Positions 3,001-15,021 of a DNA stretch of 64,000 bases are shown here, in pieces (the first letter of the stretch is position 1; every line of letters begins with the position of its first letter). The DNA lies in assembly GCA_050950165.1 (NCBI GenBank), contig JBMNHC010000001.1, positions 389,738 through 453,737 on the forward strand, written 5' to 3'. The translations under genes and the position numbers were made by a program. The notes under the pieces were generated by a model that saw only the letters and a list, made by a program, of their open reading frames with translations, made no database searches and was not told the origin of the DNA. Origin of the DNA: Candidatus Dojkabacteria bacterium. GTDB lineage: Bacteria > Patescibacteriota > Dojkabacteria > SC72.

Positions 3001-4707
3001 GTCACCGTTATTAAAAACTATCGCTCCATTAAACAGATGCATCATACTTTTAACTTTTCTAGTATCCCAGTTATTAAGATTTTGATTGAAGGAACTAGCG
3101 CCCATAAACATACCCATCATGCCAGTTACATTGCTAGTATCCCAAGAGCCGATTTTTTGGTTAAATGCTCCAGCTTTATAAAACATATATGTCATGTCAC
3201 CAACATTTTTGGTATCCCAATTCATAGTATTATGACTTTCACCTGGTGCTTCACCATTATTAAAATTAGTGGCTTCATTAAACATATTTGACATGTCCGT
3301 AACATTGCCAGTTTGCCAACTACTAAGATTTTGATTAAACGCACTAGCATATCTAAACATTCTGAACATATTTTTAACTTTTGAAGTGTTCCAACTATTT
3401 AAAGAATTACTACTTCCGCCCGGCTCGTCACCATTATTAAAATTAGTGGCTTCATTAAACATATCTGACATATCCGTAACATTGCCTGTTTGCCAATTAC
3501 TCAGATTTTGATTAAACGCACTAGCCCCTCGAAATATATGTGCCATATTTTCAACATTTGCTGTATTCCAATTACCAATATCTTGATTAAAACTCTTGGC
3601 GTCTCTAAACGCATACCCCATATTTTTAACACTTGCTGTATTCCAATTATCGCCAAACGGTTGATTAAAAGCTTCAGCCCCATAAAACATATATATCATA
3701 TATTGAAGTTTTGCACTGCTCCAATTTATAGTGTTATGGCTTTCACCCGGTGCCTCACCGTTATTAAAAGCAGCAGCATTAAAAAACATACCACTCATAT
3801 ATCCAACATTTCCTGTATTCCAATCACCAATCTTTTGATTAAACGCACTAGCCCCTTGAAACATATATGTCATGTCACCAACATTTTTAGTATCCCAATT
3901 CATAGTGTTATGGCTTTCACCTGGTGCTTCGCCATTATTAAAATTAGTAGCTCCGTTAAACATGTAAGACATATTGGTAACCGCACCAGTATTCCACCCA
4001 CCAATGTATTGATTAAAGCTTCTAGCATCTCGGAACATAGAAGCCATATTTTTAACTTGGCTAGTATTCCACCCACCAATTGGAGAGTTAAAATTAGTAG
4101 CATCCTTAAACATGCTATTCATATTGGTTACATTGCTAGTAACCCAATTATTCATAGATGAATTACCAGTAAAATTTGTGGCACCTTCAAAAGCAGAACT
4201 CATATCAGTCACTGCTGATAAATCAGGAATATCACTAGCAGTTAGTTGCATATTTTTCATGCCTATAAAAGCTGATGCGAAACTTGACCAGGGAATAGTA
4301 CCCCATTGTTTGATTTCTTGAAGTTTAGCTCTTTCATCAGCAGCTAAATCAAGAGCATAGAAGTGGAGTGGGGCTGTTGACCTAACACAAATGTCATAGG
4401 TACCAGCCTCACCATAATCATAACTAACTCTATTACTAGAAACTGGTAGGAAATCGTCATTACAATACCAAGAGACTTCATATTCATCAGTGGCGTTTTT
4501 TAGAAAGTTTAGAGTAACTTTAGTTGACTCAGTAGCTCCCTCTACATTAGTTGTCCAACTAGTAACAAACAGATCAGAAGAGTAGGCATGGGTTGGAAAA
4601 TTCCTGTTTTTAATTAAAAAGATTGTAAAAACGATAACTAACAAAGGAGTAGTTAGTAAAAAGAATATTCTCTTCACATGTGAGTATCGGACAGTTCTCC
4701 CAATCAT
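1..4707 (-). CDS. Giant surface/adhesin-like protein with DUF285 (BspA-like, ~26-residue) repeats and Ig-like/Big domains; partial, C-terminus continues past the window start
   Basis: The minus-strand reading frame is open from the ATG at 4707-4705 to position 1. The N-terminus MIGRTVRYSHVKRIFFLLTTPLLVIVF is signal/TM-like and paralogous to the N-terminus of ORF 6264..9302. About 13 repeats of the pattern xxMFxxAxxFNQxIxxWxTxNVxxMxxMF follow, then Ig-like repeats (PPxxTIxxP). The start codon overlaps the TGA stop of the upstream ORF by 1 nt. This ORF is absent from the supplied track because it has no stop in the window. Confidence 0.8.
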   Translation of the reverse strand, partial: MIGRTVRYSHVKRIFFLLTTPLLVIVFTIFLIKNRNFPTHAYSSDLFVTSWTTNVEGATESTKVTLNFLKNATDEYEVSWYCNDDFLPVSSNRVSYDYGEAGTYDICVRSTAPLHFYALDLAADERAKLQEIKQWGTIPWSSFASAFIGMKNMQLTASDIPDLSAVTDMSSAFEGATNFTGNSSMNNWVTSNVTNMNSMFKDATNFNSPIGGWNTSQVKNMASMFRDARSFNQYIGGWNTGAVTNMSYMFNGATNFNNGEAPGESHNTMNWDTKNVGDMTYMFQGASAFNQKIGDWNTGNVGYMSGMFFNAAAFNNGEAPGESHNTINWSSAKLQYMIYMFYGAEAFNQPFGDNWNTASVKNMGYAFRDAKSFNQDIGNWNTANVENMAHIFRGASAFNQNLSNWQTGNVTDMSDMFNEATNFNNGDEPGGSSNSLNSWNTSKVKNMFRMFRYASAFNQNLSSWQTGNVTDMSNMFNEATNFNNGEAPGESHNTMNWDTKNVGDMTYMFYKAGAFNQKIGSWDTSNVTGMMGMFMGASSFNQNLNNWDTRKVKSMMHLFNGAIVFNNGDVAGGSNIPLNWEIPEVTNMYSAFVARDFNQPFGPKWNTAGVKNMSNMFRLARSFNQYIGDWDTTNVENMSYMFQNANVFNNGAEPGDESKPLNWNTTKVQSMACMFNYATVFNQPFGSNWNTTNVTNMARMFDRASGFNQDISNWDVGKVEYFTQFLNASNMQYYNYDNLLDAWSKKTVKPNRTFSAVGVYYCYAGDARSKLMTTDGWNITDAGQRCPPQNLRIDNYEVEENTTEVGTISSDSERPPITYSLVPGEGSEDNSKFTFNSDTRLLSFSQAPDYEDPQGHGDPENDPDNKNKYTIRVRATDATDLSSEKIFIITVLDVDDSPPEITITPGETMMSNAPITDTTFTVSDYYTIQNVEVDSSSIATASGIACTVESGSSTSDNFPFINDSPGTKLTLNCTITINTSGKLVLKATDDSGLSSTAFKDGYVIDTTSPTFITSNVDTTTHGLHRPVVSFEAFDAVGVARYEIVYIKDNEGEGVSTTETIDEIIYTEPGVITRTLHLDPHEPQHTVKIIAYDLVGNATLKQTVFPPDVVFNAPTILSNQAIDDTTVTITAPIDGHEIDNIVISGSASDGVTLGTCTDRNNKTTAPYDTTVTCEILGIQNSGMIMVTAQDTTNGATGYETHMYTIDTVDPVITINAPTKKKKDNITNTTITVTDNIEIHPGGIEIAASSTGMAENLECTPDAGDHNIIHCTITIIESGDLTIKATDKAGNSITETKEGYIIDRIAPKVLITSTTPINRANRAHYTLGGTCTAGDGNITIVVTEQSYSTECLADSTWSTELDLSAQPDGTVIVYASQTDDVGNKGDDTKNLTKDTIPPVVGYEDLSTNNPSPELTGTVNDKDATVTVKIEETGQIINATNNQNGTWTVSAGDINSLTTNTYNLTITATDSTQNSSEITGQLIIDITPPYITSIVPATEQSNPTNQQPIIFHATFSEPLKDDTLAANGFKIKEDGVITTAKVTEATSINNKKYALSVSGITNQKASITVLSP
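3183..3950. repeat. Near-identical intragenic DNA repeat units (~90-140 bp) inside the DUF285 repeat region of gene 1
   Basis: Segments 3183-3320 and 3861-3950 are nearly identical (catatatgtcatgtcaccaacattttt[g/a]gtatcccaattcatagt[a/g]ttatg[a/g]ctttcacctggtgcttc[a/g]ccattattaaaattagt...). Segments 3251-3350 and 3421-3520 are also nearly identical. Both pairs encode FNNGEAPGESHNTMNWDTKNVGDMTYMF-type units. Confidence 0.7.
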
Positions 4708-6065
4708 CACTCTCTCTTCTTCTCTTTATATATTTTATACCCTAGTAGTATTGCTAGTAGAACAATCAGTGCAATTAACCAGTAAACATAGTTTGGTGTA
4801 GTTACTTGTTCCAACTTTATATTAATCTCCATCTCTTCTTCTCCATCATTAATTAAGTTAATCTCTCTTTCTGATCTATACCCGTTGTATGAAATAACCA
4901 TTGTATGTAAACCAGTATCTAGATTTTCAAAATATACCTCTCCATTTTCATCAGTAATACCTGTTCTAATATCAGAGTGTATTTCAATAGTTGCACCTTT
5001 AATAGGTCTGTGTTGTTTGTCATATACCTTTACTCTTAAGTTCTTAGATTGAGTAGAAGAAGTAGGCTCTTTAACTGTATCTGAAGTATCGTCGGAAGTT
5101 TCTTCTTCCATCTGTTCTATTACAGAGGCGAAATATTTAGTAAATGGATTCCTTGGTTTTCGTATTACTGGTTGTGGGACTGGTGGTGTTATGACGGAGG
5201 GGGGAAGTACAAAGTACATTATACTATTATCCGTAAAGGTACTAGCCTCATTTAAATTACCAGCCATATCTGCAATTCTTCCAGCAGGTAAAATGAGTCT
5301 TACTGTTTCTCCAGATAGCATACCAGTTATAAATACTGTATATGTAGTATTATTAACCTTTACTATTTGAGATACCCTAGCTGTACTACTACCTAAAATA
5401 TCTAGCTCTCCCTTGTAGAAAGAAGTTACATTTACTGGTTCGGAGAAAACAGCTGTAAATTTTATTGGTTCTGTATGTGCAGGATCTGTTTGACCTTTTG
5501 CTTGATTAATTGTCACAGTTGGTGGAGTGGTATCGTATGTAACAGAGTTGTCGGTAAAGGTACATATGAGGTTGTCATTTCCAGCAAGGTCTGTAACTGA
5601 CCCTGCAGGTAGTCTTGCAACTACAGTATCTCCATCTGTTAAGTTATTTACTTCAATTTCATACCTTTTATCACCAATGTTTGTAATACTTTCTACTTGG
5701 GCAGTACTACTTCCTAAGAGTAGTACTTTCCCTTTTGTAAACGTAGCTTCATTAATAGTCTCGGAGAAAATAACTAAGAATTTTATAGAATCTTCATTAG
5801 TAGGATCACTTTGTGTTGGTGATTGATTAACAGAAACAGTTGGAGGAGCTGTGTCTTTCTTTAATGTTGCTTCTGCATTCCCTTCGTTTCCTACAGAATC
5901 TGTTTGTTTTACTGCTACAGGAATATCTCCATCAGGGTAGGTGGAAAGATCTAGAGGTAGGGTCCATCTATTTTCATTACATGTTGCTAAGTATGGTTGT
6001 GTAATCATGATGACAATTGGGTCTTTATCACCAGACGTGCATCCACCTGATAGTGTGTAGCTCAT
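4707..6065 (-). CDS. C-terminal fragment of the second giant DUF285 surface protein: Ig-like repeats, CarboxypepD_reg-like domain and a C-terminal TM anchor. Same frame as ORF 6264..9302.
   Basis: Supplied ORF. Repeated motifs TPPTVxxNQ...TxPIxFxxxFSE are Ig-like. The stretch LRVKVYDKQHRPIKGATIEIHSDIRTG...YNGYRSEREINL is a carboxypeptidase-regulatory-like fold. The hydrophobic tail YVYWLIALIVLLAILLGYKIYKEKKRE is a TM anchor. It is homologous to the corresponding region of gene 1..4707. Confidence 0.75.
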   Translation of the reverse strand: MSYTLSGGCTSGDKDPIVIMITQPYLATCNENRWTLPLDLSTYPDGDIPVAVKQTDSVGNEGNAEATLKKDTAPPTVSVNQSPTQSDPTNEDSIKFLVIFSETINEATFTKGKVLLLGSSTAQVESITNIGDKRYEIEVNNLTDGDTVVARLPAGSVTDLAGNDNLICTFTDNSVTYDTTPPTVTINQAKGQTDPAHTEPIKFTAVFSEPVNVTSFYKGELDILGSSTARVSQIVKVNNTTYTVFITGMLSGETVRLILPAGRIADMAGNLNEASTFTDNSIMYFVLPPSVITPPVPQPVIRKPRNPFTKYFASVIEQMEEETSDDTSDTVKEPTSSTQSKNLRVKVYDKQHRPIKGATIEIHSDIRTGITDENGEVYFENLDTGLHTMVISYNGYRSEREINLINDGEEEMEINIKLEQVTTPNYVYWLIALIVLLAILLGYKIYKEKKRE

Positions 6066-6263: not shown

Positions 6264-9200
6264 TTAGTCATTCAATACATCAACAGTTGTATCTGAGTGT
6301 ATTGTGATATCGTCTGCAAAAAGATCAACCCCATCAGTAACTGTAATTGTGACATCAGTGATATCGCTGTTACTTGATTTGGTAGGTGCAGAGATAACTA
6401 TTTTTGGAGCCTCTGTGTCATGGAAATATTTTTGTAAATTCATCCCTTCATATATCTGTTCAGAGGCATCTTTTTCCTTAGCATGAACTTCAAGCATACC
6501 AGTCTCTTGAATACCGTGTATCTGGCATTCTACAGAAGTAATGTAAGGGAAAACTGGAGTCTCATCTATGTTGTCATCTTTATCTTTACAGTTGCGAAGC
6601 TGTGCTCCGGAAGCGGCTGCACCTCGGAGGTCAATATCAGTAATGATGTTGCCTGGAGTGGATGTAGTAATTTTTACAGTTGTATTATTGATAGGGTTTC
6701 TACTAATTATGGTAGGAGCAGTTATTTCAATTGTTGGTGGGAAATAGATTCTTCTGGATGTGTAGTTATCGGTATTGTCATACGCCTTAATTTCTATTGA
6801 ACGAGGAACCTGATGAGGATCTAAGTCGATCTCATCGTAGGAAAGTGTTCCTGGACGATCTTCAATTGAAATGATTGTGGCTTCCTCTGATACACCCTCT
6901 CCGTCATTATCTTTAAAGAAAATGATTTCATATCTCTGTATTCCTGTAGGGTCTTCAGCTTTAAAGGAAACACTTGGATTATCTATACTGTATGGTGTAG
7001 CAGTATTAACATTGGCTACAGTAAAGGTTGGACCAAATGTATCAATGATATATCCAGGCTCTTCAGCAGTAGTAGTGTAACCTGCTTCATCAGTAGCATA
7101 AAGGACTAAGCTACCAGAGGTGGTAATGGTGACCTTACATCTTATAGTTAAATGGTTTGTAGGGTCAGGTTCATCACATCTATATGGGAAATCTGGTGAT
7201 GATGTGTTTCTTACTCCCCAACACTGGATGCTATTAGGCTGAATGGCAGCAACACTTGATGTATGTAATCCTACTGATTTAATTGAGAATCTATCACTTA
7301 CTTCAAACTCTGTATCCGTTATATTCCCCTTGTTTTTCTTAATCCCTGGGTAAATTGTAATAACTGGTCCTACATCATCAATATCGTTGACGGTAATAAC
7401 GAAGACTGCTTCCGAGTACTGTTTAACTACATCAGTGACTCGTACTCTAATGGTATATTTGTTTCCATCTTCTGGATCAGCTGAACCTTGTGGGTCTTCA
7501 AAGTCAGGTGGTTGTGAGAATGCTAATAGTCCAGTAGATGAGTTAAGAGCAAATTTAAGATTGTCTTCACTTCCTTGCCCAGGAACAAGGGTGTAGATTA
7601 GAGATGAAGTCTCTTCGTCTTCTGCAGTGATAGTGCCTACCTCTGTTGTATTTTCATCAATCTCTGTGTAGTCCAAATCTATATTAAATGGAGGACAGTT
7701 TTGACCAGCATCATTGATAGTCCAAGTGTAAGTAGTACTTAACTTGTTCCTAGCTGTTCCTGCATTACAGTAGTAAACACCATCTGCACCGAATGTTAGA
7801 CCCAATTTGACATTTTGTTCACTCCAACTGTTCAATAGCCTGTCATAGTTATCTGATACTAGTCCAGAGTCGCTGAGAAAGAGATCAAAATTTGTAACAC
7901 CTCTAACATTCCAAGTTGATATGTCTTGATTGAATGCCTTTGCGTTGTTGAACAAAGAGCTCATATTACTAACCTTTGAGGTATCCCAATTTCCAATAGG
8001 TTGGTTAAATGAGGTTGCACCTTTAAACATATCTGACATAGAGGTAACTCCTGATGTCACCCAATTGTTAAGAGGTTGATTAAAAGCTACAGCTCCTTCA
8101 AATAGTTTGCTCATAGTATATACCTGAGATGTATTCCAACTGTTAAGTGGTTTGTTGAATGAAGAGGCACCTCTAAACATACTTGCCATATCTCTTAGTC
8201 TGTTAGTCTCCCAAGTACTAATATCTTGGTTAAACGAAGTAGCTAAAGAAAACATAGCTGTCATGTAAATAACCTTTGATACATCCCAATCACCAATTGG
8301 TTGATTGAAATTAGTAGCCCCAGCAAACATACCTGACATATTCGTTACATTTCCTGTTTTCCATTTCTTAATATCTTGGTTAAAAGCTGTTGCACTATAG
8401 AACATGTATCTCATGTTGTTGACATTTGAAGTATTCCATTCCCCTATGGGTTGATTAAAAGCATTGGTACTACCAAACATATATGACATATCTTCAACAT
8501 TTTTAGTATCCCAATTCTCAATATTTTGATTAAATGCTCTAGCTACATAGAACATACAATTCATATTTGTAACATTTCCAGTATTCCAACCCCCAATATT
8601 TCGATTAAATGATTGAGCGTTCCTAAACATTCTTGACATATCAGTTACATTGTCAGTATCCCAGCCACTAATGTCTGCATTGAATTTACCACTATTCTCA
8701 AACATACTTTTCATATTAGTCACATTGATGGTATCCCAAGAGTTCATAGAATTGTTTCCAGTAAAGTTTTGGAGACCACCGAAAGCACCAGACATATCTG
8801 TTACTCTTGACAGATCAGGTGCATCAGAAGCAGTTAACTGCATATTACCCATACCCCAGAAAGATGATGCAAAACTTGACCATGGAATGGTACCCCACTG
8901 TTTAATCTCTAATAGTTTTGCTCTTTCATTTGCAGATAAGCCTGTAGATTGGAAAGATATTGGATAGATAGTCTGTATACAAATTCTATAAGTACCGGGT
9001 GTTTGAAAGTCATGAACGACTTTGTCATAATAAATCACTTCATCAATAGAGCCATTACATTCCCAGTCAACTTCATAGCTACCTGTTGCTCCTGTTAACT
9101 GGAAGTTTAAGGTAACTGTTGAATCAGTTGGATCAGTTATATTAGTTTGCCATTCGGTTACGAATAGATTAGGGGCATAGGCATAGGTTTTAAAAGGATG

Positions 9201-9302
9201 TTTTTTAACAAGGAAGGTAGTAAACCCAGCAACTAGAAGAAGGGTAGTCAAGATTAAGAGAAATCTTTTTGTATATGAATGTTGGACAGTTTTTGTAATC
9301 AT
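6264..9302 (-). CDS. N-terminal 1012-aa portion of the second giant DUF285 surface protein, ending at an in-frame TAA; probably an interrupted gene or pseudogene
   Basis: Supplied ORF. It has an N-terminal signal/TM and about 14 DUF285-type repeats (FNQDISxWxTxNVTNMxxMF), then Ig-like domains. The 198 nt between its TAA (6264-6266) and the next ATG (6065) are stop-free in the same frame and encode sequence homologous to gene 1. Confidence 0.8.
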   Translation of the reverse strand: MITKTVQHSYTKRFLLILTTLLLVAGFTTFLVKKHPFKTYAYAPNLFVTEWQTNITDPTDSTVTLNFQLTGATGSYEVDWECNGSIDEVIYYDKVVHDFQTPGTYRICIQTIYPISFQSTGLSANERAKLLEIKQWGTIPWSSFASSFWGMGNMQLTASDAPDLSRVTDMSGAFGGLQNFTGNNSMNSWDTINVTNMKSMFENSGKFNADISGWDTDNVTDMSRMFRNAQSFNRNIGGWNTGNVTNMNCMFYVARAFNQNIENWDTKNVEDMSYMFGSTNAFNQPIGEWNTSNVNNMRYMFYSATAFNQDIKKWKTGNVTNMSGMFAGATNFNQPIGDWDVSKVIYMTAMFSLATSFNQDISTWETNRLRDMASMFRGASSFNKPLNSWNTSQVYTMSKLFEGAVAFNQPLNNWVTSGVTSMSDMFKGATSFNQPIGNWDTSKVSNMSSLFNNAKAFNQDISTWNVRGVTNFDLFLSDSGLVSDNYDRLLNSWSEQNVKLGLTFGADGVYYCNAGTARNKLSTTYTWTINDAGQNCPPFNIDLDYTEIDENTTEVGTITAEDEETSSLIYTLVPGQGSEDNLKFALNSSTGLLAFSQPPDFEDPQGSADPEDGNKYTIRVRVTDVVKQYSEAVFVITVNDIDDVGPVITIYPGIKKNKGNITDTEFEVSDRFSIKSVGLHTSSVAAIQPNSIQCWGVRNTSSPDFPYRCDEPDPTNHLTIRCKVTITTSGSLVLYATDEAGYTTTAEEPGYIIDTFGPTFTVANVNTATPYSIDNPSVSFKAEDPTGIQRYEIIFFKDNDGEGVSEEATIISIEDRPGTLSYDEIDLDPHQVPRSIEIKAYDNTDNYTSRRIYFPPTIEITAPTIISRNPINNTTVKITTSTPGNIITDIDLRGAAASGAQLRNCKDKDDNIDETPVFPYITSVECQIHGIQETGMLEVHAKEKDASEQIYEGMNLQKYFHDTEAPKIVISAPTKSSNSDITDVTITVTDGVDLFADDITIHSDTTVDVLND

Positions 9303-9554
9303 AATCTCAAAATGTTAGGTAATAGTATACTGATTTTATCTATCAATCTTCTACCTTCTTTATTGCATTAGAGTTTATATATTAAGCATTCTCTATACTT
9401 AATACCATAGTATATCTTTCGTTATTATTCAAGCCCAAATTTTAAGTTTTGGGTATACAACAAGAGAGTTGTCTAGTATGATTAAAGGTAATAGCAATGG
9501 AGAGGCGAGAATGTAGTAGTTTTCATCTCTATATCTAACTTTTTTATACCCCCT

Positions 9555-10829
9555 ATGAAAAAAGAAAAATCTCAAGAGTACATATTTCCAAAAAATTTCT
9601 ACTGGGGAGCTGCTACTGCTAGTCATCAAGTAGAGGGAAATAATTATAATGATTGGAGTGAATGGGAGAAATCAGAGAAAAGAATTAATGATTTAAAGAA
9701 GAGTGGATTACTTGATAAATATGGACAAGATAACTTCATATCAGGTAGAGGAGCAGACCATTACAACAAGTATAAGGAGGATTTTAAACTAGCAAAAGAA
9801 TTAGGTCATAATGCTACAAGATTTTCCATTGAATGGTCTAGGATAGAGCCAGAAGAAGGAAAGTTTGATCAAAAGGCAATTAATCACTACAAAGATGTTA
9901 TAAAGAGATTAAAAGAATTAGATATTGAACCATTTGTAACTCTTTGGCATTGGCCGATACCGATCTGGTTGAGGGATAAGGGGGGATTAAAATCATCTGA
10001 GATGCCAAAATACTTTGTTAGATATGCTAAGAAGGTAGTAGAGGCATTGGGAGATGATGTTAAGTTTTGGATTACACTTAATGAGCCATTGGTAAATACT
10101 TCAATCTCTTATATACAAGGGATATGGCCACCACAAAGAAAGAATCCTTTTGTTTTTCTTAAAGTTAATCTTAATTTACTAAAGAGTCATAAACTTACAT
10201 ATACTGCTATAAAGGAGATTAATCCAAAAGCTCAAGTAGGTATAGCGAAACATAATGCATATTTTAGTATCAAGGGTAATTATTTAATTAATAAGGGTAT
10301 TAAATCTCTTGTAGATGCTTTGTGGAATCATTTATGGTTACGGTGTATTAGAGATCATCAAGACTTTATTGGTCTAAATCACTATTTCCATCATAGGATT
10401 CTTTATGGCTTAGGTAAGAATGAGAGGAAAATTATTAACCATATGGGTTGGGAGATATATCCAACATCTCTCTATCACTGTCTTAAAGATTTAAAGAGGT
10501 ATAACAAGCCAATATATGTTACAGAGAATGGTTTAGCAGATGCTAAGGATGAGAAGAGAACATGGTTTATCTATGAAATGCTTAAAGGGGTTCATAAGGC
10601 AATAGAAGAGGGTGTTGATGTAAAAGGATATTTACATTGGTCTCTGATGGATAATTTTGAATGGGCTGATGGATATTGGCCAAGATTTGGTTTAATAGAG
10701 ATAGATTATGATACTCTTGAGAGGAGACCTAGAAAATCTGCATACTTTTACAGAGATATCTGTAAGAGTAATGGAATAACCTCATCAGTAGTAGAAAAGT
10801 ATAAAGAAGAGATAGAGAGATTTTCCTAA
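9555..10829 (+). CDS. Glycoside hydrolase family 1 beta-glucosidase/beta-galactosidase
   Basis: The N-terminal GH1 signature FPKNFYWGAATASHQVEG is present. The catalytic acid/base motif is ITLNEP and the nucleophile motif is YVTENG. The length of 424 aa is typical of GH1. Confidence 0.85.
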   Translation: MKKEKSQEYIFPKNFYWGAATASHQVEGNNYNDWSEWEKSEKRINDLKKSGLLDKYGQDNFISGRGADHYNKYKEDFKLAKELGHNATRFSIEWSRIEPEEGKFDQKAINHYKDVIKRLKELDIEPFVTLWHWPIPIWLRDKGGLKSSEMPKYFVRYAKKVVEALGDDVKFWITLNEPLVNTSISYIQGIWPPQRKNPFVFLKVNLNLLKSHKLTYTAIKEINPKAQVGIAKHNAYFSIKGNYLINKGIKSLVDALWNHLWLRCIRDHQDFIGLNHYFHHRILYGLGKNERKIINHMGWEIYPTSLYHCLKDLKRYNKPIYVTENGLADAKDEKRTWFIYEMLKGVHKAIEEGVDVKGYLHWSLMDNFEWADGYWPRFGLIEIDYDTLERRPRKSAYFYRDICKSNGITSSVVEKYKEEIERFS

Positions 10830-10922
10830 TACAATAAGGTAGAGGGGATAAATTTGCTTAGTGTAGCAATAAGACTTAAGTGTTGAGTACTTATCTCTAT
10901 ATCTTTGGGTTATGATTATATA

Positions 10923-12074
10923 TTACTCAAGCTTTTTATTACTACTCAATTCTAAAAATTCTTTGTAGTTATCAATATTAACAAGCTTGTATGTAGCATT
11001 AGGGTATTCTAACCAACTCTTAGGAGCCTTCCTATCTTTATCCCACTTAAATTCATATCCATCTAAATTATCTGCATACTTCTCTATATAGTCCACCTCT
11101 GCTCTGTCATATGTTCTCCAAAAGAATCTAGATACATATCTTCTAGTATATTCATTTAATTTCATCCTTTCTATAATTAGGAAGTTTTCCCACAATGCTC
11201 CTCTGTCATTTCTTTTACTTAATGGATTGAAATTGTTAATTAATGCATTTCTAATACCTAAGTCATAGAAATATATCTTGTTTTGTTTAGAAAGTACTTT
11301 TCTTTCATTAGTGTAGTATGGAGGTAATCGGAAGATAACATAGTTTTTTTCTAAAAGATCTATATATCTCTCTATTGTCTTGTAATCTAAACCTACAAGG
11401 TTACTAAGCTCTGTTAATGAAACTTCTGAACCTATCTGTAATGCTAATGCTGAGAGTAATTTATCTAAATATGAAGAATCTTTTACCTTCTCTAATGCTA
11501 ATATGTCTTTGTATAGGTAGCTTCTACTTATTTCTCTTAACAATCTCTCTTTCTCAGAAACACTACTTGTATATACTGCTGGGTACATACCGTATACCAA
11601 GAGTAGTTCTAATTCTTTATCTATAGCTAACGGGTGTTTTTCAGAGTATATTTCTCCAACAGAAAGAGGGTAGAGTTCATAAACATATTTCCTACCTGTT
11701 AATGGTTCTGATGTATTAGAAAGAAGATTAAGACTAGATGAACCAGTTGCAATGATCTGTTTTTCTTCTCCATAGTTATCTACAAGTAGTTTAAGTACAT
11801 TCCCTATCTCTTTAACCTTTTGAGCTTCATCTATAAATATGATTTTTTTGTCTGCTATGAAGTTGTTTAAGTATTCAAAATCTCTCTTATCTAAATTTTC
11901 TTTATCTTTTGGGTTATCGGCATTTAGAAACAAGACATTGTCATAGTCTTTTAATATATGGGTTGCTAGTGTTGTTTTACCAATTTGTCTAGGTCCAGAG
12001 ATGATAATAACCTTTCCTTTGAAGAAATCTCTCTTTATATTCTCTTCTATTGTTCTTTTTAGTCTGTATTTCAT
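10923..12074 (-). CDS. AAA+ superfamily ATPase with C-terminal DUF4143-like domain
   Basis: The Walker A motif is ISGPRQIGKTTL, with a Walker B-like IIFIDEAQ. The C-terminal region has the conserved architecture of the uncharacterised AAA_14/DUF4143 ATPases common in archaea and CPR. Confidence 0.7.
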   Translation of the reverse strand: MKYRLKRTIEENIKRDFFKGKVIIISGPRQIGKTTLATHILKDYDNVLFLNADNPKDKENLDKRDFEYLNNFIADKKIIFIDEAQKVKEIGNVLKLLVDNYGEEKQIIATGSSSLNLLSNTSEPLTGRKYVYELYPLSVGEIYSEKHPLAIDKELELLLVYGMYPAVYTSSVSEKERLLREISRSYLYKDILALEKVKDSSYLDKLLSALALQIGSEVSLTELSNLVGLDYKTIERYIDLLEKNYVIFRLPPYYTNERKVLSKQNKIYFYDLGIRNALINNFNPLSKRNDRGALWENFLIIERMKLNEYTRRYVSRFFWRTYDRAEVDYIEKYADNLDGYEFKWDKDRKAPKSWLEYPNATYKLVNIDNYKEFLELSSNKKLE

Positions 12075-12085
12075 TCCTGTTATTA

Positions 12086-12199
12086 GGCTTAATTTAAGGA
12101 ATTGGCTCCTTATTGTAGGCCCAATTTAAGGAATTGTCAAGTATTTTATGCCTAATTTAAGGAATCAACTACAAACATTATGCCTAATTTACGGAATTG
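12086..12199. repeat. Four direct iteron-like repeats (~19 bp, consensus GCYYAATTTAAGGAATTG) spaced ~32 bp apart, in the promoter region of the DUF4143 ATPase gene
   Basis: The copies are ggcttaatttaaggaattg (12086), ggcccaatttaaggaattg (12118), tgcctaatttaaggaatca (12149) and tgcctaatttacggaattg (12181). The period of about three helical turns matches phased protein-binding sites. Confidence 0.6.
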
Positions 12200-12248
12200 T
12201 TAGTGTGTAGAAAAGGATAGGTATATTTCTAAAGTTAAAAACAACTCT

Positions 12249-13022
12249 TTAACCAATATTCTTGAAGCTGACATCTAAATATTTAACTATATAATCAAAA
12301 AAAGAAGCCAAATTCTCCCTCTCTTTTCTAGGCACAAAAGGAGCTAAATCTTTTACAAAGTTCTTCTTGGAGAACAACTTTATCCTTTCTTCTAAAGTAT
12401 TTGAATCTATTTTCTTAATATCATAGTACTTAAGCTTCTTGGTAACCAAGTCATCATTAAACTTTGCTCCAAGCTCTAGTAATATCCATAAATCATATAG
12501 ATCTCTATGCTTTACCCTTGTCATTACAGCCCTTATCTTCTCTGCAAATATCTCATCTATACTTAAGGTATTTACAAAACTTTGGAAGATAACAGGATAC
12601 TCGGTTTTTAGAATACTTTGCTTTGGTTCTAAAACTTGTTCTCTAGTAGAGAAATCTAGTTTGATATATACCTTGCTCTTTAGAAAAGGAACCTCTGCTG
12701 TCAAAAGATATGTATATCCTATTATCGATTTCCTCTCCTTTATCTTAAAAGTATATATGTTTTCTAAATATTGAAAGAATGAGAGTATCTTCTCTTCGAA
12801 TTCTTCCTCTGGCATATTTACAGTGAAATCTAAATCCTCTGAAAATCTATGTCCTCCCCATATTAATCTGATTGCAGTGCCTCCCTTAAAAAAGATATTT
12901 TTAGAGAAATTTTGTTCATACAATTCTTTTAGAAAGAGTATCTGTACAAACTCTCTTACTACGACAGAGTTAGATATTTGAAATTTTTTTGATAGTTGTT
13001 TTACTTGTTGTTCTATTATCAT
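12249..13022 (-). CDS. AbiEii/AbiGii-family nucleotidyltransferase (type IV toxin-antitoxin / abortive infection toxin)
   Basis: The N-terminal motif FFKGGTAIRLIWGGHRFSEDLDF matches the nucleotidyltransferase motif of AbiEii/DUF1814 proteins. Size is 257 aa. The gene overlaps the upstream AbiEi-like gene by 4 nt (ATGA). Confidence 0.75.
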   Translation of the reverse strand: MIIEQQVKQLSKKFQISNSVVVREFVQILFLKELYEQNFSKNIFFKGGTAIRLIWGGHRFSEDLDFTVNMPEEEFEEKILSFFQYLENIYTFKIKERKSIIGYTYLLTAEVPFLKSKVYIKLDFSTREQVLEPKQSILKTEYPVIFQSFVNTLSIDEIFAEKIRAVMTRVKHRDLYDLWILLELGAKFNDDLVTKKLKYYDIKKIDSNTLEERIKLFSKKNFVKDLAPFVPRKERENLASFFDYIVKYLDVSFKNIG

Positions 13023-13609
13023 AGATATTGAGATATTAAAAGTTTAATTGATTTCCTAAGCCTCTTTGGTAGGAGGTATATATATTTTTCTACTTCCCTT
13101 TTTTTAATATTTGTATAGTCCATTTCATTTAGATACTCTGCATTTTTTTTCTTTAGGGCTATCATGTAGAGTTGATCAAAGAGAGCTTTTTCTGGATATG
13201 CCATGAGACAGTTACCTAGTTTGTAATATCCAGTATATATTTGCTTACTTATCTTCGTATATGTGTATGTTTTGCCCAATATTTCTTTACTTTTGCTTTT
13301 CTTTGTCGTAGCTGAAATAATTTCAAATGGAAACTGACTTAAAATTCCATGATAGTTAAGAGCAGTTTCAAAGGAGATGTATGATGGAGAGTAGAGGAAT
13401 TGAGATATTTCAAAGTCTGTGATATTTGAATCTGTTAGTATGTACTTACCTTTTTCTAAAGGAGTTATTACTTTTGTATCAATTAGTTTCTTTATTCTGT
13501 TTTCTAATGTTCTTTGAGTATTGATTCCTAAGATTTGTGATATATCTTTAGTAGTAAAGAGCTTTTTATCACTTTTAAGAAACAAATTTACAATGTTTAT
13601 CAGTTCCAT
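13019..13609 (-). CDS. AbiEi-family antitoxin/transcriptional regulator (winged HTH N-terminus)
   Basis: A 196-aa protein with an N-terminal HTH-like segment (TTKDISQILGINTQRTLENRIKKL) sits immediately upstream of, and is translationally coupled to, the AbiEii-like gene. Its own promoter carries a palindromic operator. Confidence 0.65.
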   Translation of the reverse strand: MELINIVNLFLKSDKKLFTTKDISQILGINTQRTLENRIKKLIDTKVITPLEKGKYILTDSNITDFEISQFLYSPSYISFETALNYHGILSQFPFEIISATTKKSKSKEILGKTYTYTKISKQIYTGYYKLGNCLMAYPEKALFDQLYMIALKKKNAEYLNEMDYTNIKKREVEKYIYLLPKRLRKSIKLLISQYL

Positions 13610-13657
13610 ATACCACCTATTTTAGGTGGTTTGTGGAAATATGTCAATGGGGGGGGG
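13610..13657 (-). promoter_or_regulatory. AbiEi promoter: -35 TTGACA, 17-nt spacer, -10 TAAAAT. A palindrome ACCACCT-aaaat-AGGTGGT overlaps the -10 and RBS, and a C9 (G9 on +) homopolymer lies just upstream of the -35.
   Basis: Minus-strand reading gives cccccccccATTGACAtatttccacaaaccaccTAAAATaggtggtaATG. The G9 run on the + strand is at 13649-13657. Confidence 0.6.
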
Positions 13658-13800
13658 AGGAGATTAATTTTGCGAAAAAATGAAGGCTGTACATATTGTT
13701 GCTCCTTTCTCCATTCCGTGATATACTCGCTCTGTTAGCAATTAATATTAGTCGTATGTCTATCCAGCTAACAGGAAGACATCACCAAAGGATTAACCCT

Positions 13801-15021
13801 ATGGCACAGACAAAAAAGCAAACAGAGAGTTCTGCTATGTACTCTCAAATAGATGAATTTCTTTCAGATAGCAAACATCAGATAAAGCAACTTGCAAGAG
13901 GAGATATTGTAGAAGGAGAAGTTGTAGATATTAACAATGGAATAATCATTGTAGATGTTGGGTATAAGTCTGAAGGAATAGTTGCAGGAAAAGAGCTTAA
14001 AAGTGATACATTAGATTGGACAACTCTAAAACAGGGAGACAAGATCTTAGTGTATGTTGTTAAACCTGAAGATGATAAAGGACAGTTAGTACTCTCAATT
14101 AGAAGAACACAGCAAGCAAGTGCATGGTTAGCATTAGAGAATGCTAAAAAGAACAATGATATCGTAGAAGCTGTAGTAGTAGAATCTAATAACGGGGGAT
14201 TAATTGTTGAGATAGGGAAAGGAATTAGAGGCTTTATCCCAACTTCTCAGCTAGATGCAACAAGGGTATATGCAGACGGTGTTAGACAGGTAGGTAAAGA
14301 TATCTCCTCTAGGGTACAGAAAAGACTTAACTCTTTAATAGGGGAGAGTATTAAAACTAGAATCATTGAATTAGATAGAGAGAAAAACAGAATAATTCTT
14401 TCAGAGAAAATGGTGACACAGGCAAGAGATTTAGAGAAGAGGGCACAGACCTTAAAGAAGGTAAAGGAAGGAGATGTACTTGAAGGAACAGTTAGTGGTA
14501 TTACCCCATTTGGTATCTTTGTTAATGCACAAGGTTTAGAAGGACTAGTGCACCTTTCTGAGCTTTCATGGGATAAAGTGGAAGATATTGGAGCAATATA
14601 TTCTGTAGGAGATAAAGTTGAGGTAATGGTAATAGGGTTGACAGATGGTGGAAAGAGAGTTGCATACAGTGTAAAAAGGTTACAGCAAGATCCATGGTCT
14701 ATGGCAATTTCTAAGTTTAAAGTCGGAGATATTGTAGATGGAGAGGTACAGAAGGTTGTTCCATACGGAGCATTTGTTAGAATTGGAGAGGGTCTAAATG
14801 GTCTAATTCATATCTCAGAGCTTTCAGACAAACTAGTTAAGAATCCTGAAGATATTGTAAAGACAGGTCAGAAGGTAAAGGTAAAAATTCTTTCAATATC
14901 TTCTACTGAAAGACACTTAGGATTAAGTCTTAAGGCAGCACAGACACCAGCACAGAAACAGCTAAGTGAGGAGCAACTCTCAGAGGCAATAGATGCTGCG
15001 ATAGATGCAGAGATAAAGTAA
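13801..15021 (+). CDS. rpsA: 30S ribosomal protein S1 (four S1 domains)
   Basis: S1-domain motifs recur (GDIVEGEVV..., GxV..I..fGaFV). The supplied ORF starts at 13696, but an extended -10 (TGaTATACT, 13719-13727) places the transcription start after 13696. The ATG at 13801 (MAQTKKQ) has AAAGGA upstream. Confidence 0.8.
   Translation: MAQTKKQTESSAMYSQIDEFLSDSKHQIKQLARGDIVEGEVVDINNGIIIVDVGYKSEGIVAGKELKSDTLDWTTLKQGDKILVYVVKPEDDKGQLVLSIRRTQQASAWLALENAKKNNDIVEAVVVESNNGGLIVEIGKGIRGFIPTSQLDATRVYADGVRQVGKDISSRVQKRLNSLIGESIKTRIIELDREKNRIILSEKMVTQARDLEKRAQTLKKVKEGDVLEGTVSGITPFGIFVNAQGLEGLVHLSELSWDKVEDIGAIYSVGDKVEVMVIGLTDGGKRVAYSVKRLQQDPWSMAISKFKVGDIVDGEVQKVVPYGAFVRIGEGLNGLIHISELSDKLVKNPEDIVKTGQKVKVKILSISSTERHLGLSLKAAQTPAQKQLSEEQLSEAIDAAIDAEIK

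Follow-up and report, generated by a model that had tools for sequence, protein, structure and literature searches.

The window analysed here, a single stretch of 64 kb of DNA from the Dojkabacteria-like genome of an uncultured bacterium (Patescibacteria, or candidate phyla radiation, CPR), carries three adjacent minus-strand genes: abiEi and abiEii, which code for the antitoxin and the toxin of an AbiE-type system, and a gene for a DUF4143 ATPase assigned to the candidate defence family PDC-S01. The analysis makes it probable that these genes form a cassette of 2.8 kb consisting of two independent modules, a self-repressed AbiE pair and a PDC-S01 gene, and that this cassette has been exchanged horizontally. 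Judged from its sequence, the AbiE part is an ordinary AbiE toxin-antitoxin (abortive-infection) pair of known design.

Open reading frame (ORF) calling placed abiEi at positions 13019-13609 (196 amino acids, aa), abiEii at 12249-13022 (257 aa) and the ATPase gene at 10923-12074 (383 aa), all on the minus strand. The three genes are flanked by a GH1 gene (9555-10829, plus strand) and by rpsA (plus strand, ATG at 13801). An initial annotation of this DNA had described the three ORFs, a promoter, a palindrome and a C9 tract, and all of these were located at their positions in the present analysis. The stop codon of abiEi and the start codon of abiEii share 4 nt (ATGA): the layout is bicistronic, with the antitoxin gene first, and agrees with the translational coupling that had been proposed.

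The abiEii product matched PF08843 (1.5e-31; 110.6 bits, cut-off 22.5) and the PADLOC AbiEii model (2.1e-39). Its motifs were aligned by eye with those described in PMC3985639 and in the preprint 10.64898/2026.01.19.700257. Motif I corresponds to G47-G48, motif II to R59-F-S61-E-D63-L-D65, motif III to K163..R170 and motif IV to R173-D-L-Y-D177; the loop between motifs I and II is two residues shorter than in the AbiEii of Streptococcus agalactiae, and S61 occupies the place of the auto-phosphorylated T65 of that toxin. In S. agalactiae, mutagenesis showed that toxicity depends on all four motifs (PMC3985639). The family matches and the four catalytic motifs bear out the assignment of this gene to the AbiEii-like nucleotidyltransferase toxins.

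The abiEi product matched the PADLOC AbiEi model (4.7e-25), residues 14-194 being aligned to positions 12-197 of the 199 positions of the model. An AlphaFold2 (AF2) model of the protein (pLDDT 84) showed secondary-structure elements in the order H-S-H-H-S-S, which is the published topology of the winged helix-turn-helix (wHTH) domain. In a Foldseek search with this model the first match was 6y8q, the AbiEi of S. agalactiae (E 6.9e-6), and the third was 1zel, the Rv2827c protein of Mycobacterium tuberculosis. The AbiEi/AbiEii pairing was kept in nearly all of 79 related loci.

A promoter scan located the abiE promoter, P1, at 13619-13647 on the minus strand: TTGACA (13647-13642), a 17-nt spacer and TAAAAT (13624-13619), with 11 of 12 consensus positions matched. 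Within 10700-13900, the region scanned, the minus strand gave just one other 11/12 match. The promoter is thus the one read by the initial annotation, and the 7-5-7 palindrome ACCACCT/AGGTGGT which had been noticed across it is equally real, with 0 matches expected by chance. The palindrome proved to be the core of a longer inverted repeat of the form 16-3-16 (13604-13619 / 13623-13638), in which 14 of the 16 positions are complementary. In the window the two arms read TTCCACAAACCACCTA-AAA-TAGGTGGTATATGGAA (13638-13604). The dyad is centred at 13621, within the -10 element, and the whole operator was delimited to 13600-13642 on the minus strand; in the family consensus the operator begins with the last base of the -35 and reaches codon 3 of abiEi.

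Conservation of this arrangement was analysed in 79 loci of Patescibacteria, Chloroflexota and other groups, whose AbiEi homologues show 36-67% identity, and which together with close relatives gave 90 loci (referred to below by L numbers, where needed). Among these loci, whose AbiEi proteins are 36-100% identical, 70 of the 90 share one gap-free register: TTGACA at -38..-33, TAnAAT at -15..-10 and, 9 nt past the end of the -10, the abiEi ATG. The mean Watson-Crick complementarity of the two arms, calculated over 61 unique sequences, was 0.72 about position -12 and between 0.18 and 0.36 about any other centre tried; it fell to 0.593 (standard deviation 0.008) when the columns of the right arm were shuffled among the sequences. 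The pairs formed by positions -19..-16 and -8..-5 covary, with compensatory changes at four pair positions, and the inner arms occur as ACCACC/GGTGGT, ACCACG/CGTGGT, ACTGTC/GACAGT and ACTCT/AGAGT. Conservation extends to the outer arms, ACGTTTCC.../...GGAAACGT, which reach into codons 1-3.

Covariation was also found between the operator and the protein. Residue 36 of AbiEi was the best tracker of bases -19 to -17 and residue 37 the best tracker of base -16, with z up to 31. Both residues are located at the start of a predicted helix (32-44; helix 3), the recognition helix of the winged-helix fold. A glutamate at position 36 was accompanied by C at -19 without exception (23 of 23 loci), and phenylalanine or tyrosine by T in 34 of 35. 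In loci with an RT[LF]E[ND] helix, N37 went with ACCACC (7/7) and D37 with ACCACG (11/13); the RT[FY]YR helix was associated with ACTGT, and ATFFS mostly with ACTC[TC] or ACTAT.

In S. agalactiae the abiE promoter, PabiE, contains a pair of 23-bp inverted repeats separated by 3 bp, TAAAAT being located at their dyad, and AbiEi binds these repeats cooperatively and represses transcription (PMC3985639, PMC7319586). The layout found in the window matches this operator, and the site is conserved and shows covariation both between its arms and with the protein; the reading of AbiEi as an autorepressor that binds the inverted repeats of its own promoter, already put forward by the initial annotation, is therefore well supported by comparative analysis and by analogy. 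By this mechanism, abiEi and abiEii would be cotranscribed from a consensus promoter of the sigma-70 type, and abiEii would probably be translated by termination-reinitiation at the ATGA overlap. Two molecules of AbiEi would bind the two arms of the dyad of about 43 bp, which starts at the edge of the -35, includes the -10 and reaches into codon 3, with residues 36 and 37 predicted to read the inner half-site ACCACC. By extension from the binding of S. agalactiae AbiEi, the bound protein would block RNA polymerase and keep expression low. AbiEii, a predicted DUF1814 (COG2253) nucleotidyltransferase toxin with intact catalytic motifs, would be held inactive by AbiEi; the model now current for the homologous system of S. 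agalactiae has the antitoxin inducing auto-phosphorylation of the toxin, which here may take place on S61 as the equivalent residue.

The sequence AGGTGG, which the initial annotation had taken as a Shine-Dalgarno site, lies between the -10 and the ATG of abiEi and ends 3 nt before the start codon. In homologues the same position is occupied by GACAGT, AGAGT, ACGTGG or CCTAAT, and these changes follow the left arm: the stretch between the -10 and the ATG corresponds to the variable right arm of the operator and holds no conserved purine run. Since AGGTGG is located between the -10 and the ATG, at a spacing maintained in most of the loci, we regard it as operator DNA and not as a usable Shine-Dalgarno site. 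With an ATG only 9 nt past the -10, a leader could have a few bases at most, and we infer from this spacing that the abiE mRNA is leaderless or nearly so.

A leaderless habit across the whole genome was considered and rejected: among the ORFs of 60 aa or more in the 64 kb, a consensus promoter placed in this register was found for abiEi alone, and the predicted promoter of rpsA lies about 75 nt upstream of its ATG. The likely rpsA promoter (13699-13727, plus strand) consists of TTGCTC, a 17-nt spacer and TATACT with a TG extended -10; the predicted -10 is followed by the rpsA ATG at about 75 nt, versus 9 nt for abiEi.

Some results weigh against the reading of the AbiE module given so far. The match of AbiEi to Pfam AbiEi_4 (19.1 bits) was below the cut-off of 25, that to NCBIfam TAA_AbiEi (43 bits) was below the cut-off of 150, and no sequence-level relative was found when the AbiEi family profile was compared with the PDB. 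The membership of AbiEi in the family therefore rests on the PADLOC models and on the fold, which support the earlier proposal of an AbiEi-like antitoxin. In addition, the covariation counts ignore phylogeny, and the split between E36 with C and F or Y with T could be the result of one ancient event, although several separate co-changes of protein and operator are contained in the counts. Finally, in S. agalactiae the abiE mRNA begins with a leader of 26 nt that contains a ribosome-binding site (PMC3985639, PMC7319586), which makes the leaderless layout an extrapolation from the spacing.

The C9 tract (G9 on the plus strand) is located at 13649-13657, one base upstream of the -35 of P1. No other run of G or C in the 64 kb exceeds 6, and about 0.05 runs of this kind would be expected under a first-order model; with nine residues the tract is long enough to slip (about 8 or more). 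In the window and in L002 the sequence reads CTCCT-C9-A. In eight loci from different samples (L003-L010) it reads CTCC-CCCC-TT, an invariant run of C6, and at the aligned place L095 has TTCC only, that is C2. Hence three lineages with near-identical promoters differ at the tract (C2, C6 and C9), and most members of the family are without any tract. The contig of L001 ends inside the tract, a break which is ambiguous because the edge of the exchanged block (see below) falls at the same place.

No heterogeneity in the length of the tract was seen, both complete copies of the lineage (window and L002) having C9. Exact look-ups with AbiEi, rpsA and AbiEii gave the same one or two contigs and no further copies of the window lineage, and a pattern scan of metagenomes for this lineage recovered six loci, none of which belonged to it. 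The tract also lies between divergent promoters, 42 nt from the likely rpsA promoter. In an unrelated locus, L054 from an Elusimicrobia metagenome-assembled genome, G9, A and TTGACT (G9 at 3043-3051) directly precede the promoter of a DUF4143 ATPase gene, in the same way as C9-A-TTGACA in the window; the same upstream region of L054 holds 12-nt tandem repeats of the CCATGGGATAAA and CCCATGACCATG types.

Two other explanations of the DNA upstream of abiEi were weighed. According to one, the C9/G9 tract is a slipped-strand switch, as suggested in the initial annotation; by gaining or losing C residues it would alter abiE expression or the balance between the divergent abiE and rpsA promoters. 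The rarity of such runs, the change of its length in evolution, the L001 contig that ends within it and the similar G9 of Elusimicrobia would fit a switch, and the tract does separate an A/T-rich stretch from the -35, so that its length sets the distance between them. This distance is however the only thing altered by a change of length: slippage upstream of the -35 affects neither the -35/-10 spacing nor any reading frame, and a near-consensus promoter should need no activator. Taken with the constant C9 in the two full-length copies, the constant C6 in the eight sister loci, the many family members that have no tract and the possibility that the L001 break reflects the cassette boundary, this makes a switch improbable. 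We read the C9 tract instead as a recent, lineage-specific homopolymer expansion at the edge of an exchanged block, and as not required by the promoter, because sister lineages with near-identical promoters have C6 or CC in its place. The other explanation concerns the inverted repeat, which could work as an RNA hairpin that hides a Shine-Dalgarno site (AGGTGG) and the start codon. The resemblance of AGGTGG to a Shine-Dalgarno core speaks for it, and the arms could pair if both were transcribed; a transcript from P1 would nevertheless hold the right arm alone, and the scan detected no further promoter-like site on the minus strand between 13650 and 13900. AGGTGG is moreover too close to the ATG, its counterparts in homologues track the left arm and not the anti-Shine-Dalgarno sequence, and a search of 10700-13900 for known RNA elements gave one sub-threshold chance match alone, with no match of the repeat to an Rfam family. 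A hairpin of this kind is therefore very unlikely indeed, and the repeat is best explained as the operator of AbiEi.

The product of the third gene (10923-12074) matched PF13173 AAA_14 (8e-33, residues 20-142), PF13635 DUF4143 (2.4e-35, residues 189-344) and PADLOC PDC-S01 (model PDLC04789, 3.5e-143), in agreement with its initial description as a DUF4143 AAA ATPase. The best fold matches of its AF2 model (pLDDT 86) were Apaf-1, PAB2304, CED-4, RuvB, RFC and MalT, which belong to ATPases of the STAND and clamp-loader types; no sequence-level relative was found in the PDB. In the C-terminal part, residues E296/E302, D328 and E341-F-K343 were invariant in 28 homologues, and inspection of the model placed E296/E302 on a helix and D328 and E341-F-K343 on successive strands. 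This fits a PD-(D/E)XK nuclease-like domain; DUF4143 has been assigned to the PD-(D/E)XK superfamily (PMC3424549). We consequently describe the protein, on the strength of its model, as a putative defence protein: a STAND-like P-loop ATPase with a winged helix and a C-terminal PD-(D/E)XK nuclease-like domain. PDC-S01 is a very common single-gene candidate defence system, reported to rank fourth in frequency among such candidates in prokaryotes, with validation pending (PMC12988326). Only three relatives of the ATPase were found on viral contigs.

The ATPase gene has a promoter of its own. The scan located P2 at 12112-12140 on the minus strand: TTGACA (12140-12135), a 17-nt spacer and TACAAT (12117-12112), again with an 11/12 match, the -10 being 37 nt from the ATG of the gene. 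The equivalent position is conserved in L003, L095, L097, L099, L101, L103 and L105. A small upstream ORF following the -10 in some homologues is absent from the window and was dropped from consideration.

P2 is embedded in four direct repeats (iterons) of about 24 bp (12079-12198, minus strand) with the consensus AAyTCCkTAAATTAGGCmTAAwAT; neither these repeats nor P2 had been described in the initial annotation. Their cores are located at 12087-12095, 12119-12127, 12150-12158 and 12182-12190, with spacings of 32, 31 and 32 bp, and lie 21, 53, 84 and 116 nt before the ATG, respectively; counted in the direction of transcription, unit 3 fills the spacer of P2, and unit 4 stands between the -10 and the ATG. 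The 12-mer AATTTAAGGAAT, with no more than one mismatch, has four occurrences in the array and a single one in the rest of the 64 kb.

Upstream of ATPase homologues 63-97% identical to that of the window, in unrelated contexts, these units recur with an unchanged 32-bp phase. Homologues that stand alone (63-87% identical) all carry units at -53/-21 or -48/-16, a further, distal pair is present in some homologues (-145/-113 or -177/-145), and the units of L095 number five. All unit spacings, those with gaps of 65 and 97 bp included, are multiples of about 32 bp, or approximately three turns of the helix, and the core AAATTAGGC is nearly invariant across this range of homologues. Upstream of more distant homologues (44-47%), two operator-like inverted repeats of another sequence, about 32-33 bp apart, were recognised by eye; an automatic search for repeats of at least 9 nt upstream of homologues 26-36% identical gave no clear outcome. 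No mention of a phased repeat array was found in the papers searched, nor any description of PDC-S01 regulation.

Linkage of the ATPase gene to abiE was restricted. The gene lies directly downstream of abiEii only in L001-L010 and L095; in the other loci ATPase homologues were present near AbiE in 7 of 79, in mixed orientations. Homologues 63-87% identical stand alone between rmlB and rmlA, by a tRNA-Thr gene or after a malic enzyme gene. In L099-L102, which represent two genomes, the homologue (75-77% identical) is located inside a dTDP-rhamnose operon, between rmlB-like and rmlA-like genes in the same orientation, and the next gene begins 15-20 nt past its stop codon. In L097 a tRNA-Thr(tgt) gene (5165-5241) is found on the opposite strand, 25 nt after the stop codon of an 87% identical homologue, which suggests that this homologue was inserted beside the tRNA gene.

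These observations bear on two further alternatives. The three genes could form one system, as the initial annotation implied by treating them together, with the DUF4143 ATPase-nuclease as a sensor or effector of AbiE. They do move as a block, with 92-93% identity across three lineages, and read-through from abiEii into the ATPase gene is possible, there being no terminator-like site between them; DUF4143 ATPases also occur near AbiE pairs in the seven more distant loci just mentioned. Outside the close lineage, however, the ATPase gene has no fixed place downstream of abiEii and occurs in varying orientations. It has a consensus promoter and a repeat array of its own, and its homologues are found without AbiE in the rml operon, by the tRNA-Thr gene and by the malic enzyme gene; published AbiE systems consist of two genes (PMC3985639), and PDC-S01 is catalogued as a single-gene candidate (PMC12988326). 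A single three-gene system is thus unlikely, and because of its own promoter, of the limited linkage and of its solitary occurrence elsewhere the ATPase gene is, on the comparative evidence, a separate single-gene module, a neighbour of AbiE rather than a partner. As for the repeats, their most likely role may be that of operator sites for the winged-helix domain of the ATPase itself, which we suggest with reserve. With the array as a conserved cis element of this gene family, an oligomer of PDC-S01 that binds the phased repeats through its winged helix, as a sequence-specific and autoregulating DNA-binding ATPase-nuclease, is a possibility that we advance tentatively, and it is weakened by the fact that the winged-helix domain of STAND ATPases is usually regulatory and not a reader of DNA. 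Alternatively, the repeats may be bound by a conserved host factor or be left over from a duplication of the promoter. The near invariance of the core among the homologues is as expected for a shared factor, and every unit ends in a -10-like TAAwAT; yet a -35 at the appropriate distance exists for unit 3 alone. The repeats also travel with the gene into unrelated contexts and keep their 32-bp phase across the longer gaps, and in the 44-47% identical homologues the repeats differ while a similar period of 32-33 bp, seen by eye, persists, which argues for a binder encoded in cis. An origin of the repeats unconnected with binding by the ATPase is accordingly doubtful, if possible, and binding by the ATPase is the reading that we retain provisionally.

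The horizontal exchange of the cassette was deduced from identity profiles. The cassette is 92.6% identical in nucleotide sequence to that of L003-L008, where the flanking genes differ. When compared with L095 in steps of 150 nt, identity was 90-98% from the abiE promoter through the ATPase gene, with the exception of the repeat-bearing intergenic window 12101-12250 (73%). It was 62-82% in rpsA and in the spacer between rpsA and abiEi and 68-77% in other backbone genes, the step in identity being located at about 13600-13700. At the protein level, RpsA is 74-77% identical, versus 94-97% for the products of the cassette. The identity of the cassette, being above that of rpsA, the spacer and the backbone, indicates a recent exchange between related species of a segment at about 10919-13698 (minus strand), comprising abiEi, abiEii, the PDC-S01 gene and their regulatory DNA, at a site next to rpsA. 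A blastn comparison of the 2.8 kb of cassette DNA with plasmid and phage collections gave no match, and no tRNA gene adjoins the cassette in the window.

Differences in gene content were noticed at this site and near it. In L003-L010 rpsA is separated from the cassette by a radical-SAM gene (438 aa) and a gene for an ABC-type ATPase with two ABC_tran domains (516 aa), at about 859-3727 in L003; these genes may represent a further accessory or defence pair in the same variable spot. The downstream neighbours of the cassette also differ in the L003 lineage. Comparison of the window with the 98.9% identical contig L001 (region 6264-9375) showed that homology ends at 9375; a 1012-aa repeat-rich protein of surface type in the window is replaced in L001 by genes of 442 aa and 715 aa. 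This difference in gene content points to a second variable spot beside the GH1 gene.

In many CPR loci (L042, L056, L065, L074, L085 and others) two to three divergent AbiEi/AbiEii pairs are adjacent, sometimes accompanied by DUF4143 ATPases, and AbiE appears to have multiplied within these small genomes. Within the cassette of the window, a promoter-like sequence CTGACA-16-TATAAT (11/12) was found on the plus strand at 12268-12295, directed into the 3' end of abiEii in antisense orientation. Chance may account for it, because promoter-like sites in this region are rarer than in shuffled controls.

The AbiE result adds little that is new in kind. It indicates that a large branch of AbiE, in CPR bacteria and Chloroflexota, would keep the autorepression design of Streptococcus, reduced to a leaderless form with the start codon inside the operator. 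The readable link of residues 36 and 37 to bases of the operator could serve to predict or re-engineer the specificity of AbiEi. Less expected are the repeats found with the ATPase gene, which are the only element that might lead somewhere new: if the ATPase does bind them, an abundant and uncharacterised family of candidate defence proteins would gain a testable DNA-binding activity. The cassette also illustrates the recent exchange of defence genes between CPR species at one locus by rpsA.

Homopolymeric phase switches in promoter regions are known from Neisseria porA and opc and from Bordetella fim, where the tract separates the -35 from the -10, or the core promoter from an activator site. 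The window resembles these cases in having a G/C homopolymer of 9 in a promoter region. It differs from them in the position of the tract upstream of the -35, in a consensus promoter that looks independent of an activator, and in showing no length polymorphism.

The ATPase matches PDC-S01 (COG1373) over its full length, with no difference at the protein level. Like the STAND NTPases of the Apaf-1/CED-4/MalT fold, its model has a nucleotide-binding domain (NBD), a helical domain and a winged helix in this order, and a nuclease-type domain is found on the same polypeptide. Antiviral STANDs of the Avs type are STAND NTPases with nuclease effectors. The protein of the window is likened to this group by its fold: with 383 aa it is much smaller, it is without a repeat-type sensor, and its nuclease domain is C-terminal.

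The antitoxin shares its fold with Rv2827c of the M. tuberculosis Rv2827c/Rv2826c pair, in which 23-bp inverted repeats also overlap the promoter and mediate autoregulation (PMC7319586). Rv2827c is the larger protein, and its promoter has two pairs of repeats with 13-bp gaps and negative cooperativity, in contrast to the single pair with a 3-bp gap in the window.

The closest known system is the AbiE of S. agalactiae V/R 2603, even though sequence identity is about 15% and the half-site sequences of the two operators differ. The arms in the window start at the last base of the -35, and the dyad is centred inside the -10; in S. agalactiae the arms contain the -35 and the centre is just before the -10. 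The start codon of the window lies within the right arm, 9 nt past the -10, instead of following a 26-nt leader with a ribosome-binding site. In other respects the two agree: in both, the antitoxin gene stands before the toxin gene and overlaps it by 4 nt, AbiEi combines a wHTH with a C-terminal domain, the DUF1814 toxin has motifs I-IV, and the promoter has a 17-nt spacer, a TAAAAT -10 and long inverted repeats 3 bp apart.

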